Origin: a virus
DNA length: 25,677 nt
Direction: 5' to 3' (one strand)
Virus record (IMG/VR): IMGVR_UViG_3300001476_000004
The notes beneath the pieces were generated by a model that saw only the letters and a list, made by a program, of their open reading frames with translations, was not told where the DNA came from and did no database searches. How positions within the stretch are numbered: position 1 is the stretch's first letter; every line of letters begins with the position of its first letter. This document shows, piece by piece, positions 6,638 through 25,170 of this stretch. A program made the translations under genes and the position numbers.

Positions 6638-6919
6638 ATGTTAAATGGAAGAATTGGTCAAGTTATTGGACCTTTTGATGCAAATATAGATTTATTAAAT
6701 GATAATGCTCCTATTGGGGCTTTTACTCCTGAAACGACAAGACCTATTTTATATAAGTTAGGAATTCAGGCAGCAGAAGGAACTATTGTTAAAATTAATA
6801 ATGTATAGATTAAAATTGGTAAAACAGGTATTTATGAATTAGATAATATTGTAGATGTAAAAACATTGGTATTTCCAAATGGAGCTGATGCAAATACAAT
6901 TATTGATTTTGTTTATTAA
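6638..6919 (+). CDS. Hypothetical late protein (93 aa) with one in-frame TAG at 6806..6808
   Basis: GGAGGA RBS at 6623..6628. ATG at 6638. The frame runs to TAA TAA at 6917..6922 if TAG is read as sense. It sits directly upstream of the tape-measure gene and could be a tail-assembly chaperone-like product. Confidence 0.45.
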
Positions 6920-6934
6920 TAAGGAGGAATTAAT

Positions 6935-7105
6935 ATGAGTTCTTTTTATGGAAATGGTATTTCCGCTAAGGAAGTAGATGGAAAAATTGAAGTTACGGCG
7001 GAGGAGTTAAAAAATCATATTATTTTTTCAAAAACTCAACCTACGGTTCAGAAGGCTGGGGATCTATGGTTTGTTATTGCATCTGATGAAAATGAAGATG
7101 AATGA
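6935..7105 (+). CDS. Hypothetical small acidic protein (56 aa)
   Basis: AAGGAGG RBS at 6921..6927. ATG at 6935. TGA stop at 7103..7105. The position between the upstream gene and the tape-measure gene suggests a tail-assembly chaperone-like role. Confidence 0.45.
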   Translation: MSSFYGNGISAKEVDGKIEVTAEELKNHIIFSKTQPTVQKAGDLWFVIASDENEDE

Positions 7106-7146
7106 AATAATTCCTGCCTTTTAATTTTAATTAAGGAGATAAAAGG

Positions 7147-10100
7147 ATGGCTTAGAGAGAGATTAGATATGGCATAAAATTTGATGTCCAAAAAAATAAT
7201 CTAAAACAAATAGAAGATGATTTTAAGCGTTTGCAGACTTCTTTAAAAGAAATGCGAACTTTAAAATTAGATGATTTTATGAAAATTAGCGGTCAGAGTA
7301 AAGATTCAGCCAAGGCTGCTTTAAAAGAAATTCAATTATAGGCTGCTAATGTACAAAAAGCTTTAACAGAAGCTTTTAATCCTAAATTAAATACTACTAA
7401 TATTACGGAATTTAATAGGGTATTAAGAAGCGAAGGTTCTTCAATGCAACAAGTGTATTAGACTTTTAGAAAGGCGGGGCCGCAAGGAGAAGCTGCTTTT
7501 AGAAGTTTAACCACTTCTGTATTAAATACAAATTATCAATTAAAACAAACTCAAACGGTTTTAGATAAGATTGGAACAACCTTTGCTAATTCATTAAAAT
7601 GGAATTTAGCTTCTTCTGCTGTTAATTCCATTACTCGTTCAATCCAACAAGCTTGGGGATATACAAAATCTTTAGATAGTTCATTGAACGATATTATGAT
7701 TGTTACTGGAAAATCTTCTGATGAAATGGCTAATTTTGCAGTACAAGCTAATAATACTGCTCAAAAACTTGGAATTTCAACAACTGATTATACAAAGGGC
7801 GCATTAATTTATGCTCAACAGGGTTTGTCAGATAGAGAAATTACAGCAAGAAATGAAATTACTGCAAAAGTTGCAAATGTTACTAATCAAAGCACAGAAG
7901 ATGTTGCGGAAGAATTAACTGCGGTTTGGAATGGTTATAAAGCAAGTGCAGATGAAGCTTAGGTATACGTTGATAGATTAGCGGCTGTGGCTGCAACAAC
8001 TGCATCAGACCTTGAAGAACTTAGTACTGGTATGAGTAAGGTTGCTAGTGCGGCCGCCGCGATGGGCGTTGGAGAAGACCAGTTAGCTGCACAGTTATCT
8101 ACCATTATTTCTGTAACCAGACAGGCTCCAGAAAGTGTCGGTACGGCACTTCGTACAGTTTATGCTAGAATTTCAGATATTAAAGCAGGAATTGATGAAG
8201 ATGGCGTTGATCTTGGTATGTACTCAGGAAAGATGGCTGAGTTAGGTTTTAATGTTTTAGACGCATCTGGTAAACTTCGAAATATGGGAGAGGTTATTGA
8301 GTAGATTGGTGGAAGATGGGCAAATCTTACAAGAGAGCAGCAAGTAAATCTTGCTCAAGTTATGGCTGGTCAAAGGCAATATTCTAATTTAATTGCTCTA
8401 TTTGATAACTTTGATAAATATAACGAAGCTTTAAATACAGCTCAGAATGCGGCAGGTACATTACAAAGCCAACAAGATACATATATGGAATCAACCGCTG
8501 CGCATTTAGAAGTTTTACATGCATCTGTTGAAAATATTTATGATAGTTTATTCAATTCAGATGGAATGGAAAAACTTATAGATGGATTGAGTGATGCTGC
8601 AAATGCCTTGGCTAAATTTATAGATTTAGTTGGAGGCGGCGGAAATCTATTAAGATCGCTTGGTGCTATTGGAATGATGGTATTTAGCACTCAAATTGCT
8701 AGAGGATTAAATACAACAATTACAAATTTAGAAATGGCAAAAATTAATGCCACTGAATTTCAACAAAGATTGTAGGTTGCATCTTAGTGGAAAGGCATTC
8801 CTGGATTAGATAAACTTAGTAAAGATATTTTAGAAAATAGACAGCAATTAATGGAATTTTCAAAGTACATGACTCCAGATCAATTTGTAGATTTTCAAAA
8901 TCGAATTAGCGAAATTGATGAAATGGCAAAAAAGATTGCTGGTCTACAAAAACAAATATCTCTTTTAGAGCCTGAATTCAAAAAATTTTCTAATGGAAAA
9001 TCTTTTATGGATGTAGCTGGCAATGCTGATGCTGAACGACAAGTTTCTGAAAATATACAAAAACAAATTCAAGGTTTAAAAGATTTAGAAGATCAAAGTA
9101 CTAGAGTTACTACTAAAATGCAGGAAAATTTTAGTAAGTATGAAAATTCAATAAAAAATGCTGATGGAAGTTTTCAAACATTTAATAAAAATGCTGCATT
9201 GTTTCAAAAAACAAATATTTTTGAACCTGCTAAACAGAATCTTCAACAATTTACAAAAGAGTTAAGTCAATTAGCCTCAGAAGGGAAAATTCAAACTTCT
9301 ACTCAATAGATAAAAAATCTTCGAACAGAAATTAGAAATCTTAGCACAGCGGAGATAGGAGACCCAAGTAAATTATCTGATTTAGCAGCTAAATATACAT
9401 AGCTTGGTTAGAAAATAAAAAATATAGCTTCACAAAGTCAAGCGTCTCTTCAGACTATGTCAGGAAAATTCTAGGAAGCTTTTACTGGCGGAACGGCAGG
9501 AGAATTAGACAAAGCAACAGCAGATGCAGAAAGATTTGCCAATGCTCTTTTTGCAAGATTGGAAGCTATGAATAGACCAACAAAGATTGAAGTCTTTACA
9601 AAAATGGCAGGCGGCATTGCTTCTTTAGGAATGGCTATTAAACAATTCCAGAGCTTAGGCAGTATATGGTCAAAGAAACAACAAGATGTTCCTTTTGGTG
9701 AAAAGCTTTTACAGACTATTATTACTTTAGGAATGTCAATTGGTATGGCAATTCCGGCAATAATGAATTTAAAAAATGGATTTGTAACTTTAGGTATGGC
9801 GGAAGCTTTTTAGGCGGCAGCAGCTAAAGCCGCAGCTTTAGCTAATAAAGTGTTAGCTGGAGAAACGACCATTTTGGGTGCGGCGGTAGAATTTGCCTCA
9901 GCCGCATTTGGGAAATTAGCTGCAGCAATGCTCGCGAATCCTTTTGTAGCGGCTGCCGCAGCTATTACAGTAGCTATTGGTGCACTTGGTGCTTGGCAAA
10001 AAGTAGTAGAAGAAAATAGAAAAGCTACTATATAGGATTCTCGTGCTATTATAGAAGAAAAAAATGCTATATAGGAAGAATTATAGTCTCATCAAGAATT

Positions 10101-23764: not shown

Positions 23765-24220
23765 ATGGCTAGTTATGTAACAACTGCTGATACATTAGTA
23801 TCATTAAATGGAACTATTCCATTTAATAGCGTTTCTATTCCTTGTAATAAGGGAAATGTTATTCCTGTAGTTCCTGGGATTCTTAACTTAAATGGCAATA
23901 CCTCTAATCGTTTTGCGAGATACGATGTCACTCTTCAGGGAAATATCCAAATCCCTGAAGGGGGCGCCGTTACTCCGATTGCGGTTGGAATTGCTCTTAA
24001 TGGGGTTGTTATTCCAGAGAGTGTCGCTATTGTAACTCCTGCCGCAGTAGGAGAGTATTGGCATGTAAATACGACTGCTTCTGTAACAGTTCCTGCTGGA
24101 TGCTGCTTAACTGTATCAAGTGTGTATGCGGATGGAACCGAAGATGATCCAGCTACTACTCCGACTCCATCTATTCAAGTAAGACGTAAAGCTTCATTAA
24201 GAGTTAATAGAACAGCGTAA
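23765..24220 (+). CDS. BclA C-terminal domain-like (C1q/TNF-like jelly-roll) protein (~151 aa)
   Basis: AAGGAGG RBS at 23752..23758. The ATG at 23765 gives MASYVTTADTLV. The pattern IPFNSVSI...RYDVTLQGNIQIPEGGAVTPIAVGIALNGVVIPESVAIV...TASVTVPAGCCLTVSSVYADG resembles the C-terminal domain of the BclA exosporium protein (PFNTVG...FYKITVIANTATASVLGGLTIQVNGVPVPG...). TAA stop. Confidence 0.45.
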   Translation: MASYVTTADTLVSLNGTIPFNSVSIPCNKGNVIPVVPGILNLNGNTSNRFARYDVTLQGNIQIPEGGAVTPIAVGIALNGVVIPESVAIVTPAAVGEYWHVNTTASVTVPAGCCLTVSSVYADGTEDDPATTPTPSIQVRRKASLRVNRTA

Positions 24221-24230
24221 GGAGGAAAAG

Positions 24231-24848
24231 ATGGGAACAGAAGCATTAAAAATGATGAAAGAACAGCTTATGTCATGTGTTCAAGGGCAGCTTGGTGATA
24301 TTTCAAAAGCTGATGCTCATGAACTTGGTGAAGCGGTTGATATGATTAAAGACCTTGCAGAAGCTATTTATTATTGTACTATCACAGATTCAATGGAAAA
24401 AAGTGATGAATCTAAAAGTCAAGGTGAAACAAATATAAATTATTATACTACTCCAAACTATTATGTCCCTCCTATGAATTATAATTATGATACAAAAATG
24501 CATCCTGATTATAGAGAAATGGAGCGGTCAGGCGGATATATGTATTATCCAACAGGCGGCAATGGGCAAAGTGCTGGCGGAAGTTCTAATAATGGTGGAG
24601 TTAGTTATTATACAGAAATGCCTGGTATGATGAGACGAGATCCTCGTTAGGGGAGAAGTCCAATACGCCGCCGCATGTATATGGAAGGTAAGGAGATGCA
24701 TAACGATCCTAACTCTCAACTTCATGAATTAGAAGCATATCTTCAGGAACTTTCAACTGATATAACAGAAATGATTAAAGATGCGTCTCCAGAAGAAAGA
24801 GCTACGTTACGTCAAAAAATGACAACGTTAGCTAGTAAGATTAATTAA
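24231..24848 (+). CDS. Tyr-rich hypothetical protein (~205 codons), one in-frame TAG (24648..24650)
   Basis: AAGGAGG RBS. ATG at 24231. Central Tyr/Asn/Pro/Gly-rich low-complexity region (NYYTTPNYYVPPMNYNYDT...GGYMYYPTGGNG) reminiscent of tyrosine-rich spore-coat proteins. The frame continues past the TAG to TAA at 24846..24848. Confidence 0.45.
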
Positions 24849-25111
24849 TGTTTCTTATTAATAATGTATATTGGAAACTTGCTTTTGTATCCCCAGACTT
24901 CCCTCTTCTTAGACGGATGTCTGGGGATTATTCTATAGGTGCGTGCGATAATCTGACTAGAACCATATATATAAATGAGACGCTAAATGGGGACCTTCTA
25001 AAGAAGGTGCTATGTCACGAGATAGTGCACGCCGCAATGTTTTCGTATAATGTATCTCTTACTATTGAACAAGAAGAAATTTTAGCAGATATTATATCTA
25101 CTTATGGGTAG
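24848..25111 (+). CDS. Small HExxH zinc-metallopeptidase-like protein (ImmA/IrrE- or SprT-like); end ambiguous (tandem TAG TAG at 25109..25114; the frame reaches TGA at 25160..25162 if TAG is sense)
   Basis: The ATG overlaps the upstream TAA (TAATG). LCHEIVHAAMFSY contains HExxH in a context like the PF06114/ImmA motif HELGHhll. A weak hairpin terminator follows at 25171..25194. Confidence 0.4.
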   Translation: MFLINNVYWKLAFVSPDFPLLRRMSGDYSIGACDNLTRTIYINETLNGDLLKKVLCHEIVHAAMFSYNVSLTIEQEEILADIISTYG

Positions 25112-25170
25112 TAGATTATTTATATAACTAATAAAGTTTTTAATAAATTAAGTAACTTATGAAAATAATA

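Follow-up and report, generated by a model that had tools for sequence, protein, structure and literature searches.

Phages with a genetic code unlike that of their host have been seen to reassign stop codons in two ways only, TAG to glutamine (Gln) and TGA to tryptophan (Trp) (Borges et al.), and phAss-1, the crAss-like phages and annotation tools all follow code 15, in which TAG is read as Gln. The TAG-to-Gln gut phages (crAss-like, Lak and phAss-1; Borges, Peters, Babkin et al.) carry TAG in structural and lysis genes, keep their early and replication genes TAG-free, never use TAG as a stop, have low G+C, inhabit gut or rumen, and carry a phage tRNA(CUA) in a tRNA array. According to a published idea, the likely role of such recoding is to delay the translation of late genes. 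Apart from the tRNA(CUA), which was seen in relatives from its clade, these features are shared by a stretch of viral DNA of 25,677 bases (IMG/VR record IMGVR_UViG_3300001476_000004; hereafter the window, meaning the whole stretch that was analysed). The window is set apart from these phages by the amino acid inserted at TAG, which is very probably glutamate (Glu), and by the suppressor tRNAs of its clade, which show features of tRNA-Glu and not those of tRNA-Gln.

Two further groups of natural codes are comparable. Phages that read TGA as Trp (code 4; Agate and Jade clades) share the strategy of a phage suppressor tRNA and recoded late genes, but differ in codon and amino acid, and TGA is a true stop in the window. 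Reading of UAR as Glu is known from the Peritrich code 30 and the Blastocrithidia code 31, where a dedicated tRNA serves a cellular genome throughout and UAA is reassigned as well. Unlike these eukaryotic codes, the window has TAA as its main stop (16 of 18 complete genes, and never in frame), and it is a virus that uses the reassigned codon, in part of its genes and against the code of its host. No report of TAG-to-Glu reassignment in phages was found in the literature searched, where reassignment to Glu is only eukaryotic.

The window is taken from the middle of a tailed-phage genome of 128 kb found in sheep rumen. Its positions 1..25677 match exactly positions 47,868..73,544 of ENA ERZ28612952 SHIW14-1 scaffold_98 (128,258 bp, sheep rumen), and a near-identity search of GenBank phages with the window gave no match. 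The G+C content was measured as 33%, slightly above the 30% given in the original prediction. The host is probably a bacterium of the Bacillota because of the set of lysis genes and the match to a Butyrivibrio phage. The cell-wall set of this genome comprises a Dp1-type holin, Amidase_2, PG_binding_1 and a GH73 domain. A late protein of 298 amino acids (aa) shares 44% identity with a Butyrivibrio virus Ceridwen protein, a Butyrivibrio phage being the best cultured match.

TAG as a sense codon

Between positions 6638 and 25162, 61 in-frame TAG codons are distributed over 9 of the 12 complete plus-strand genes, with no internal TAA or TGA. Ten of these twelve genes end in TAA and two in TGA. It had been predicted that each gene ends in TAA or TGA and is then followed by a hairpin and T-run; the stop codons are as described in all twelve, whereas the hairpin and T-run were found only behind the tape-measure gene and the RuvC-like gene. 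In the window as a whole, all 18 complete genes end in TAA (16) or TGA (2) and TAG never serves as a terminator. The complete called genes checked in a flanking locus of the same genome, L133, likewise end in TAA or TGA.

The counts on which recoding had been proposed were reproduced exactly. The open reading frame (ORF) of the tape-measure gene (7135..15870) has 2911 codons with 34 TAG, 0 TAA and 0 TGA, that of the 4.8-kb tail gene (16229..21076) has 1615 codons with 15 TAG, and the RuvC-like gene has 6 TAG within 161 codons. Because TAA and TGA together make up 3.7–6.7% of codons across the three plus-strand frames, a run of 2911 codons with neither is expected by chance with a probability of about e^-111. 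With TAG re-read as a sense codon, in the manner of table 15, the plus-strand ORFs that reach 150 aa or more add up to 6534 aa, up from 3499 aa. TGA and TAA were likewise weighed as reassigned codons and rejected on ORF structure; the gain from opening TGA is much smaller, and opening TAA chiefly yields ORFs that overlap on the two strands. Matches to PHROG and Pfam families run across the in-frame TAGs. With homology intact, no frameshifts, and many assemblies alike, TAG is a reassigned sense codon and not the result of gene decay, as the original prediction held.

The recoding is confined to part of the genome, comprising late, structural and lysis genes, where timing of expression is judged from the kind of gene. 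The concentration of TAG in late and structural genes that had been proposed is apparent from the counts in the two strands, since the 61 TAGs of the plus-strand block stand against none in the minus-strand genes (124..6169; six genes, 1829 codons). The holin, RNase H, GyrB and GyrA genes of this genome are also without TAG, and so is the tail-fibre gene over its full length, for which the full sequence was taken from locus L378. The TAG-bearing genes are the tail genes, RuvC and three cell-wall lysin genes outside the window. These lysin genes belong to a lysis cassette located 9–12 kb to the left of the window (L133 12975..15131), in which the Dp1-type holin has no TAG and the GH73, Amidase_2 and PG_binding_1 genes have 2, 2 and 1, respectively. 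A role in delaying late-gene translation fits this distribution because the early genes are TAG-free and the tail, RuvC and lysin genes are TAG-bearing.

Two side observations concern the same division of genes. The presence of TAG in the lysins and its absence from the holin suggest that holin and lysins may be controlled differently. In addition, the preferred Gln codon is reversed, with CAG at 76% in the TAG-free minus-strand genes and CAA at 77% in the plus-strand late genes. The tRNA arrays of the clade hold a tRNA-Gln(UUG), so the late genes may need phage tRNAs for ordinary codons too.

The amino acid read at TAG

From comparison with related loci, it is very probable that TAG is read as Glu and joins GAA and GAG as a third codon for it, leaving TAA and TGA as the sole stops. 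The original prediction had instead assigned Gln under code 15, citing the frequent position of TAG next to CAA or CAG. The TAGs it pointed to (10447, 10453 and 18026) do lie beside such codons, but neighbouring codons are uninformative on the amino acid. The assignment to Gln itself had to be abandoned, as tabulation of the aligned residues at the level of codons gives Glu and catalytic Glu sites carry TAG.

Alignment of the RuvC protein to 120 database homologs placed Gln at 52% of the cells aligned with TAG. The DNA of the homologs fails to translate into these proteins under table 11, and the homolog from locus L048 has four TAG codons underneath Gln residues of the database entry. The Gln signal at the protein level is circular because the database proteins had been translated with TAG as Gln, and it was discarded. 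Translation of the clade with TAG as Gln was seen in public collections for proteins P0001-P0120 and for the gene calls of L048, L378 and L384. As a lesson of method, alignment to database homologs can be circular if these were translated under an assumed code.

Codon-level alignments were used in place of database proteins. From IMG/VR and public assemblies, 132 related loci were gathered, ORFs bounded by TAA or TGA were extracted with TAG kept as an unknown residue, and BLASTP alignments were mapped back to codons, which gave a codon alignment of the window to 95 related loci. The codons paired with TAG of the window were GAA (367), TAG (155), AAA (137), CAA (86) and GAG (81). Counted as residues, these pairs amount to 448 Glu, 151 Lys, 98 Gln and 87 Asp, or 38% Glu and 8% Gln. 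In the reverse comparison, TAGs of the relatives stood opposite 4.8% of GAA, 4.3% of GAG, 2.2% of CAA and 1.4% of CAG codons of the window.

Each sense amino acid then served as a reference, its profile of opposing residues in the same alignments being compared with that of TAG. Glu gave the best fit, with a mean log-likelihood per pair of -2.25, compared to -2.83 for Gln, -2.88 for Lys and -2.95 for Asp. Glu was also best when RuvC, the tape-measure protein, the tail protein and the rest of the genes were each taken alone, with a larger gap in well-aligned context, and it remained so when only TAG-free relatives were used. Taken site by site, the majority residue was Glu at 25 of 57 TAG sites, Lys or Asp at 15 and Gln at 5. 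On this reading, TAG would occupy about 13% of the Glu positions in the plus-strand genes.

Individual sites display the same preference, and those at aa 140 of RuvC, aa 140 of the 205-aa protein and aa 89 of the peptidase-like protein are in essence invariant Glu. At TAG sites of the tape-measure protein with a clear majority residue, relatives have Glu in 8 of 10 cases at aa 272, 9 of 11 at aa 386 and 15 of 24 at aa 2612. In the tail protein, Glu is found in 16 of 18 relatives at aa 910, in 12 at aa 236, and in 11 each at aa 100 and aa 596. At aa 140 of RuvC the relatives have Glu 71 times, TAG 9 times, Ile 3 times and Ala once. The TAG of the 170-aa protein (22434) is matched by 11 Glu, 5 Asp, 3 TAG and 2 Gln, and that at aa 140 of the 205-aa protein (24648) by 27 Glu and 4 TAG with no other codon type. 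The first of the two adjacent TAGs in the 104-aa peptidase-like protein is matched by 20 Glu, 7 Asp, 3 Tyr and 1 Gln, and the second (aa 89) by 22 Glu and 9 TAG.

Strongly conserved positions give the clearest separation between Glu and other residues. In columns where at least 90% of the sense codons encode one amino acid, TAG was present at 70.6 per 1000 cells for conserved Glu, compared to 7.9 for Asp, 1.8 for Lys and 1.5 for Gln. Columns with at least 80% Glu hold 1423 Glu, 121 TAG, 32 Asp, 12 Lys and 11 Gln. Overall, CAA and CAG together outnumber TAG by about 5 to 1. If TAG were Gln, a ratio of TAG to CAA/CAG of about 1:5 would be expected in the conserved-Glu columns; the observed 121 to 11 argues that it is not.

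Two of the conserved positions are catalytic. The column of Glu61 in the window's RuvC lines up with the Glu in motif IEQVF of a RuvC of solved structure; this residue corresponds to catalytic Glu66 of E. coli RuvC. In relatives this column holds GAA 63 times, GAG 10 times and TAG 11 times, with no other codon. The GH73 lysin encoded 9 kb to the left of the window in the same genome reads IAQTIQ-TAG-TGYG where FlgJ reads AQAALETGWG, which puts TAG opposite the FlgJ Glu. This residue is Ala in the deposited chain 3K3T and Glu in 2ZYC, the two being otherwise identical. An invariant Glu acts as the general acid in GH73 enzymes (PMC4752226). In six relatives the general-acid column contains GAA three times and TAG three times, and CAA and CAG are absent from both catalytic-Glu columns. 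The TAG sites of LigA and Amidase_2 lie at variable positions and are uninformative.

The same method, applied as a control to the recoded relatives L023, L026, L027, L029, L082, L087 and L106, returned Gln, and it returned Glu for all 15 loci tested from the window's clade. Conserved columns inside the clade hold TAG at 104.5 per 1000 cells for Glu, 13.0 for Gln and 10.8 for Asp, while outside the clade TAG is confined to conserved-Gln columns. The control and the split between clades indicate that the method tells Glu from Gln and that the phage family holds both.

Suppressor tRNAs and rival assignments

The original prediction found no suppressor tRNA in the window and placed it elsewhere in the genome; ARAGORN and Rfam both agree that it lies outside the window. 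Neither program reported a tRNA in the window or elsewhere in the 43 kb examined of this genome; ARAGORN covered the window, L133, L378 and also 34 RuvC-centred loci, again without a hit, and Rfam covered the window and L133 at a loose threshold. Searches with the sigma factor and an 873-aa protein returned no copy from this genome. The tRNAs of the relatives are too divergent for one specific search pattern, and a scan was made with a generic pattern of anticodon loop and T-loop, in which the tRNA(CUA) of clade member L154 was among the matches listed. Anchoring on the DUF2828 gene led to the tRNA arrays of 23 relatives. At least 14 contigs of the clade have a tRNA(CUA) in their arrays, among them L393 (IMGVR_UViG_3300021399_000007), the closest IMG/VR relative, whose suppressor at 5196..5269 scores 64.7 bits with the Rfam tRNA model. 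The array set yielded tRNA(CUA) from L388, L391, L392, L393, L395, L396, L399, L404, L406, L408 and L409, and others were found in L135, L154, L255-L257 and L380.

The isotype of these tRNAs was judged by discrete features, namely the D-arm, the G2.U71 pair, the first base pair and the position in the array. The D-arm form GTC-AAGCGGTTTAA-GAC was scanned in bacterial genomes, and 111 of 113 carriers were tRNA-Glu, almost all from Bacillota. All clade suppressors have a G2.U71 wobble pair, which occurs in 80 of 111 reference tRNA-Glu and in none of 26 reference tRNA-Gln. They have G1-C72 or C1-G72 and never U1-A72, a D-stem of GTC/GAC or GTG/CAC, an 11-nt D-loop, and A73 or C73. In L135, L256, L257 and L388, tRNA-Glu(UUC) and tRNA-Glu(CUC) come immediately before the suppressor. 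Relatives of the Gln type instead have tRNA-Gln-like suppressors with a weak 1:72 pair and a D-arm of the form GCC-AAGCGG.TAA-GGC; this type (weak 1:72 pair, GCC-AAGCGGTAA-GGC) was seen in L023 and L044 and not in the clade.

With the tRNA-Glu(UUC/CUC) of Bacillota the suppressors have in common the D-arm GTC-AAGCGGTT(T)AA-GAC and the acceptor GGCC..GGTC with G2.U71, as well as, in some, the 4-nt variable loop and, in several, adjacency in the array. They differ from it in the CUA anticodon and an unrelated anticodon stem, and most clade suppressors also differ in having a GTG/CAC D-stem, a 5-nt variable loop and C1-G72. By these sequence features, the L391 and L135-type suppressors appear clearly Glu-like and the other clade suppressors divergent.

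Several further observations were made on the arrays. For many suppressors (L393 5195..5270, L154 4138..4213, L404, L406) ARAGORN gives an extra 5' T paired to A73 and thereby an 8-bp acceptor stem, so the 5' end of the suppressor is provisional. The array of L393 that carries the CUA suppressor also has a tRNA with anticodon UUA and a tRNA-Glu-like D-arm (6562..6634; Rfam tRNA, 51.3 bits); this tRNA would read TAA, yet TAA is the normal stop and is never in frame in the window genes. A full-length sigma-70 factor gene (regions 1.2 to 4) is located just upstream of the suppressor array in L154 (2092..2967), L380 (10001..10915) and L393 (2358..3305), and functions for the take-over of transcription and translation are clustered by this adjacency. 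Suppressors of other kinds occur in distant relatives and other rumen phages (L046, L027 3643..3718, L196, L242). They include tRNA(UCA), a Tyr-like tRNA(CUA) and, at L046 20504..20600, a 97-nt tRNA(CUA) with a long variable arm (Ser/Leu/Tyr-like). Further reassignments may be present.

A mechanism consistent with these features can be proposed, in which the phage would use a split code. Genes needed first would be TAG-free and readable by the unmodified host, and many late genes would need read-through of TAG. The decoder would be a phage tRNA with anticodon CUA, descended from a Bacillota-type tRNA-Glu; it is presumably present in this genome and placed as in the relatives, where the tRNA array that holds it has a sigma-factor gene next to it and a DUF2828 gene downstream. 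Host glutamyl-tRNA synthetase (GluRS) would load this suppressor with Glu, and G1-C72 or C1-G72 instead of U1-A72, together with the enlarged D-loop, would cause host GatCAB to leave the Glu unconverted, so that Glu would be inserted. Bacterial GatCAB needs U1-A72, and an extra D-loop base of tRNA-Glu blocks GatCAB (PMC2811023). Glu would be kept on the suppressor because its features match these published rules of rejection. If the host makes Gln-tRNA only via GluRS and GatCAB, capture of Glu would be the simplest route to an amber suppressor. By tying late proteins to a phage-made tRNA, the phage would delay their synthesis until the tRNA accumulates.

A number of points weigh against Glu as the amino acid and against this route to it. 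GluRS normally reads the anticodon, and that of the suppressor is CUA. The assignment draws wholly on sequence comparison, in which the cells of an alignment share phylogeny and are hence not independent, and within the clade TAG is about 9 times more frequent in conserved-Gln columns than a pure Glu codon would predict. The tRNA(CUA) of this genome was not found in the 43 kb, so its placement is taken from relatives, and no synthetase or release-factor gene was seen. Whole-sequence classifiers (identity and position-specific) are ambiguous for many clade suppressors, with small margins; Glu is the top class for L135, L391, L392, L393 and L395, other suppressors are placed first with Asp, Lys or Leu, and none is placed with Gln. 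A variable loop of 4 nt, as is usual in tRNA-Glu, is found in some suppressors only, most having 5 nt. The host is also deduced, and a lack of glutaminyl-tRNA synthetase (GlnRS) in it is hypothetical.

Some of these points would be accommodated by mixed decoding, in which TAG is mainly Glu but a sizeable share is Gln, through partial amidation, or another residue, and the late proteins are statistical mixtures. The TAG frequencies of the clade in conserved-Gln (13.0 per 1000) and conserved-Asp columns (10.8 per 1000) lie above the prediction from GAA and GAG, TAG sites are less conserved than Glu sites (38% versus 48% Glu in relatives), and the suppressor body is atypical. However, the occurrence of TAG at catalytic Glu positions argues for reliable delivery of Glu, and the excess can also be explained by C-to-T mutation of CAG together with placement of the new codon at tolerant sites. 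Mixed decoding is accordingly considered unlikely.

Standard code 15, with TAG read as Gln by a tRNA-Gln-derived suppressor as in the crAss-like phages, Lak phages and phAss-1, is less probable still and would be a surprise here. No other amber reassignment has been reported for phages, remoter members of this phage family show recoding to Gln and Gln-like suppressors, and there is a small excess of TAG in conserved-Gln columns. The 52% Gln among database homologs would also speak for code 15, but that signal is circular. Moreover, the codon-level pairing gives 8% Gln against 38% Glu, the conserved-Glu columns hold 121 TAG and 11 CAA/CAG where an excess of CAA/CAG of about 5:1 is expected, and TAG occurs at the catalytic Glu of RuvC and GH73 where CAA/CAG never does. 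The clade suppressors also lack the D-arm and first base pair of tRNA-Gln.

It is highly improbable that TAG encodes another residue related to Glu, for example Asp or Lys. The classifiers place Asp or Lys first for the suppressors of L396, L399, L406, L409 and L154, and one of the two is the majority residue at 15 of the 57 TAG sites. Nevertheless, their profile likelihoods (Lys -2.88, Asp -2.95) fall well below that of Glu (-2.25), and conserved Glu columns hold TAG 9–39 times more often than columns conserved for Asp or Lys. Bacterial aspartyl-tRNA synthetase relies on G73 as the discriminator base, and the suppressors have A73 or C73.

That the TAGs mark decayed pseudogenes or artefacts of assembly or sequencing has a negligible chance of being correct: table 11 does fragment every large gene, but 8.7 kb contain no TAA, TGA or frameshift, homology continues through the TAGs, and dozens of independent assemblies share the pattern, with TAG at homologous and at differing positions.

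With Glu as the favoured assignment, the wider picture is likely to be that a clade of rumen phages of about 130–145 kb has a natural amber-to-glutamate code beside sister clades of its family that read TAG as Gln, that TAG has been captured at least twice, and that translations under code 15 carry Gln in place of Glu, the catalytic residues of RuvC and GH73 included. The choice of amino acid may depend on the host's pathway for Gln-tRNA, in that GlnRS hosts may favour capture of Gln, and hosts with GluRS and GatCAB that of Glu. This link between captured amino acid and host route is a testable explanation. If the reading is correct, this would be a third stop-codon reassignment in phages, beside TAG-to-Gln and TGA-to-Trp, and capture of suppressors would be less constrained than thought. 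TAG as Gln is hard-wired in gene finders and annotation pipelines, and thousands of database proteins from the clade would then be mistranslated at active-site residues, with consequences for the prediction of structures and the mining of enzymes such as endolysins.

Gene map and neighbouring observations

The features identified in the window are listed in Table 1.

Table 1. Positions of genes and signals in the window, with supporting matches, in-frame TAG codons and stop codons.
Feature	Position	Strand	Match or description	In-frame TAG	Stop
Zinc-finger protein, 76-aa ORF	within 124..6169	-		none	TAA
RNA ligase	749..1993	-	Pfam/PHROG	none	TAA
Metallophosphoesterase	2290..3138	-	Pfam/PHROG	none	TAA
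Pyrimidine-dimer glycosylase	3131..3556	-	Pfam/PHROG	none	TAA
MVP-shoulder protein, 830 aa	3677..6169	-	PF11978, E=6e-23	none	TAA
93-aa protein, function not assigned	6638..6919	+	homologs in 9 loci	1 (6806)	
Tail tape-measure protein, 2907 aa	7147..15870	+	phrog_4211, E=7.6e-58	34	TAA
Terminator-like hairpin and T-run	15873..15901	+	13-pair stem, directly after tape-measure stop		
XkdX-like protein, 56 aa	15927..16097	+	PF09693, E=1.5e-4; phrog_134, E=1.3e-7	none	
Large tail protein, 1611 aa	16241..21076	+	no PHROG match	15	TAA
74-aa ORF	21096..21320	+		1 (21153)	
Promoter-like TTGACT-17-TATAAT	21344..21372	+	11/12 consensus matches, top of scan; consensus match only		
RuvC-like Holliday-junction resolvase, 161 aa, TTG start	21399..21884	+	PF02075, E=1.3e-5; phrog_827, E=4.4e-19	6	
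In-frame TAGs of RuvC	21453, 21531, 21678, 21783, 21816, 21852	+			
Terminator-like hairpin and T-run after RuvC	21882..21915	+	15-pair stem, then TTTTTTT		
170-aa protein	22050..22562	+		1 (22434)	
Late genes of 78, 298 and 151 aa	22578..24220	+	phrog_16490, phrog_20016	none	
205-aa protein	24231..24848	+		1 (24648)	
Metallopeptidase-like protein (HExxH), 104 aa	24848..25162	+	phrog_1233, E=2.6e-13		TGA
Two adjacent TAGs in the 104-aa metallopeptidase-like protein	25109, 25112	+			
Tail-fibre protein (884 aa), start; cut by window end	25213..25677	+	PHROG tail-fibre matches		

The RuvC gene constitutes a separate cassette, with the region's best sigma-70-like promoter ahead of it and a strong terminator behind. 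In the relative L064 it and the tail genes are on opposite strands, an arrangement suggestive of a cassette that inverts or moves.

A set of genes resembling those of RNA repair was also observed, consisting of the RNA ligase, two metallophosphoesterases and an AAA_33 kinase-like protein (window 749..3138, minus strand; L133 11870..12899). The set is similar to phage systems for the repair of tRNAs after cleavage by anticodon nucleases of the host.

The 830-aa MVP-like protein is kept in 47 IMG/VR contigs of 120–195 kb. A protein search with its gene returned only LR756500, LR756501 and LR756503, phages of 462–735 kb, at about 36% identity.

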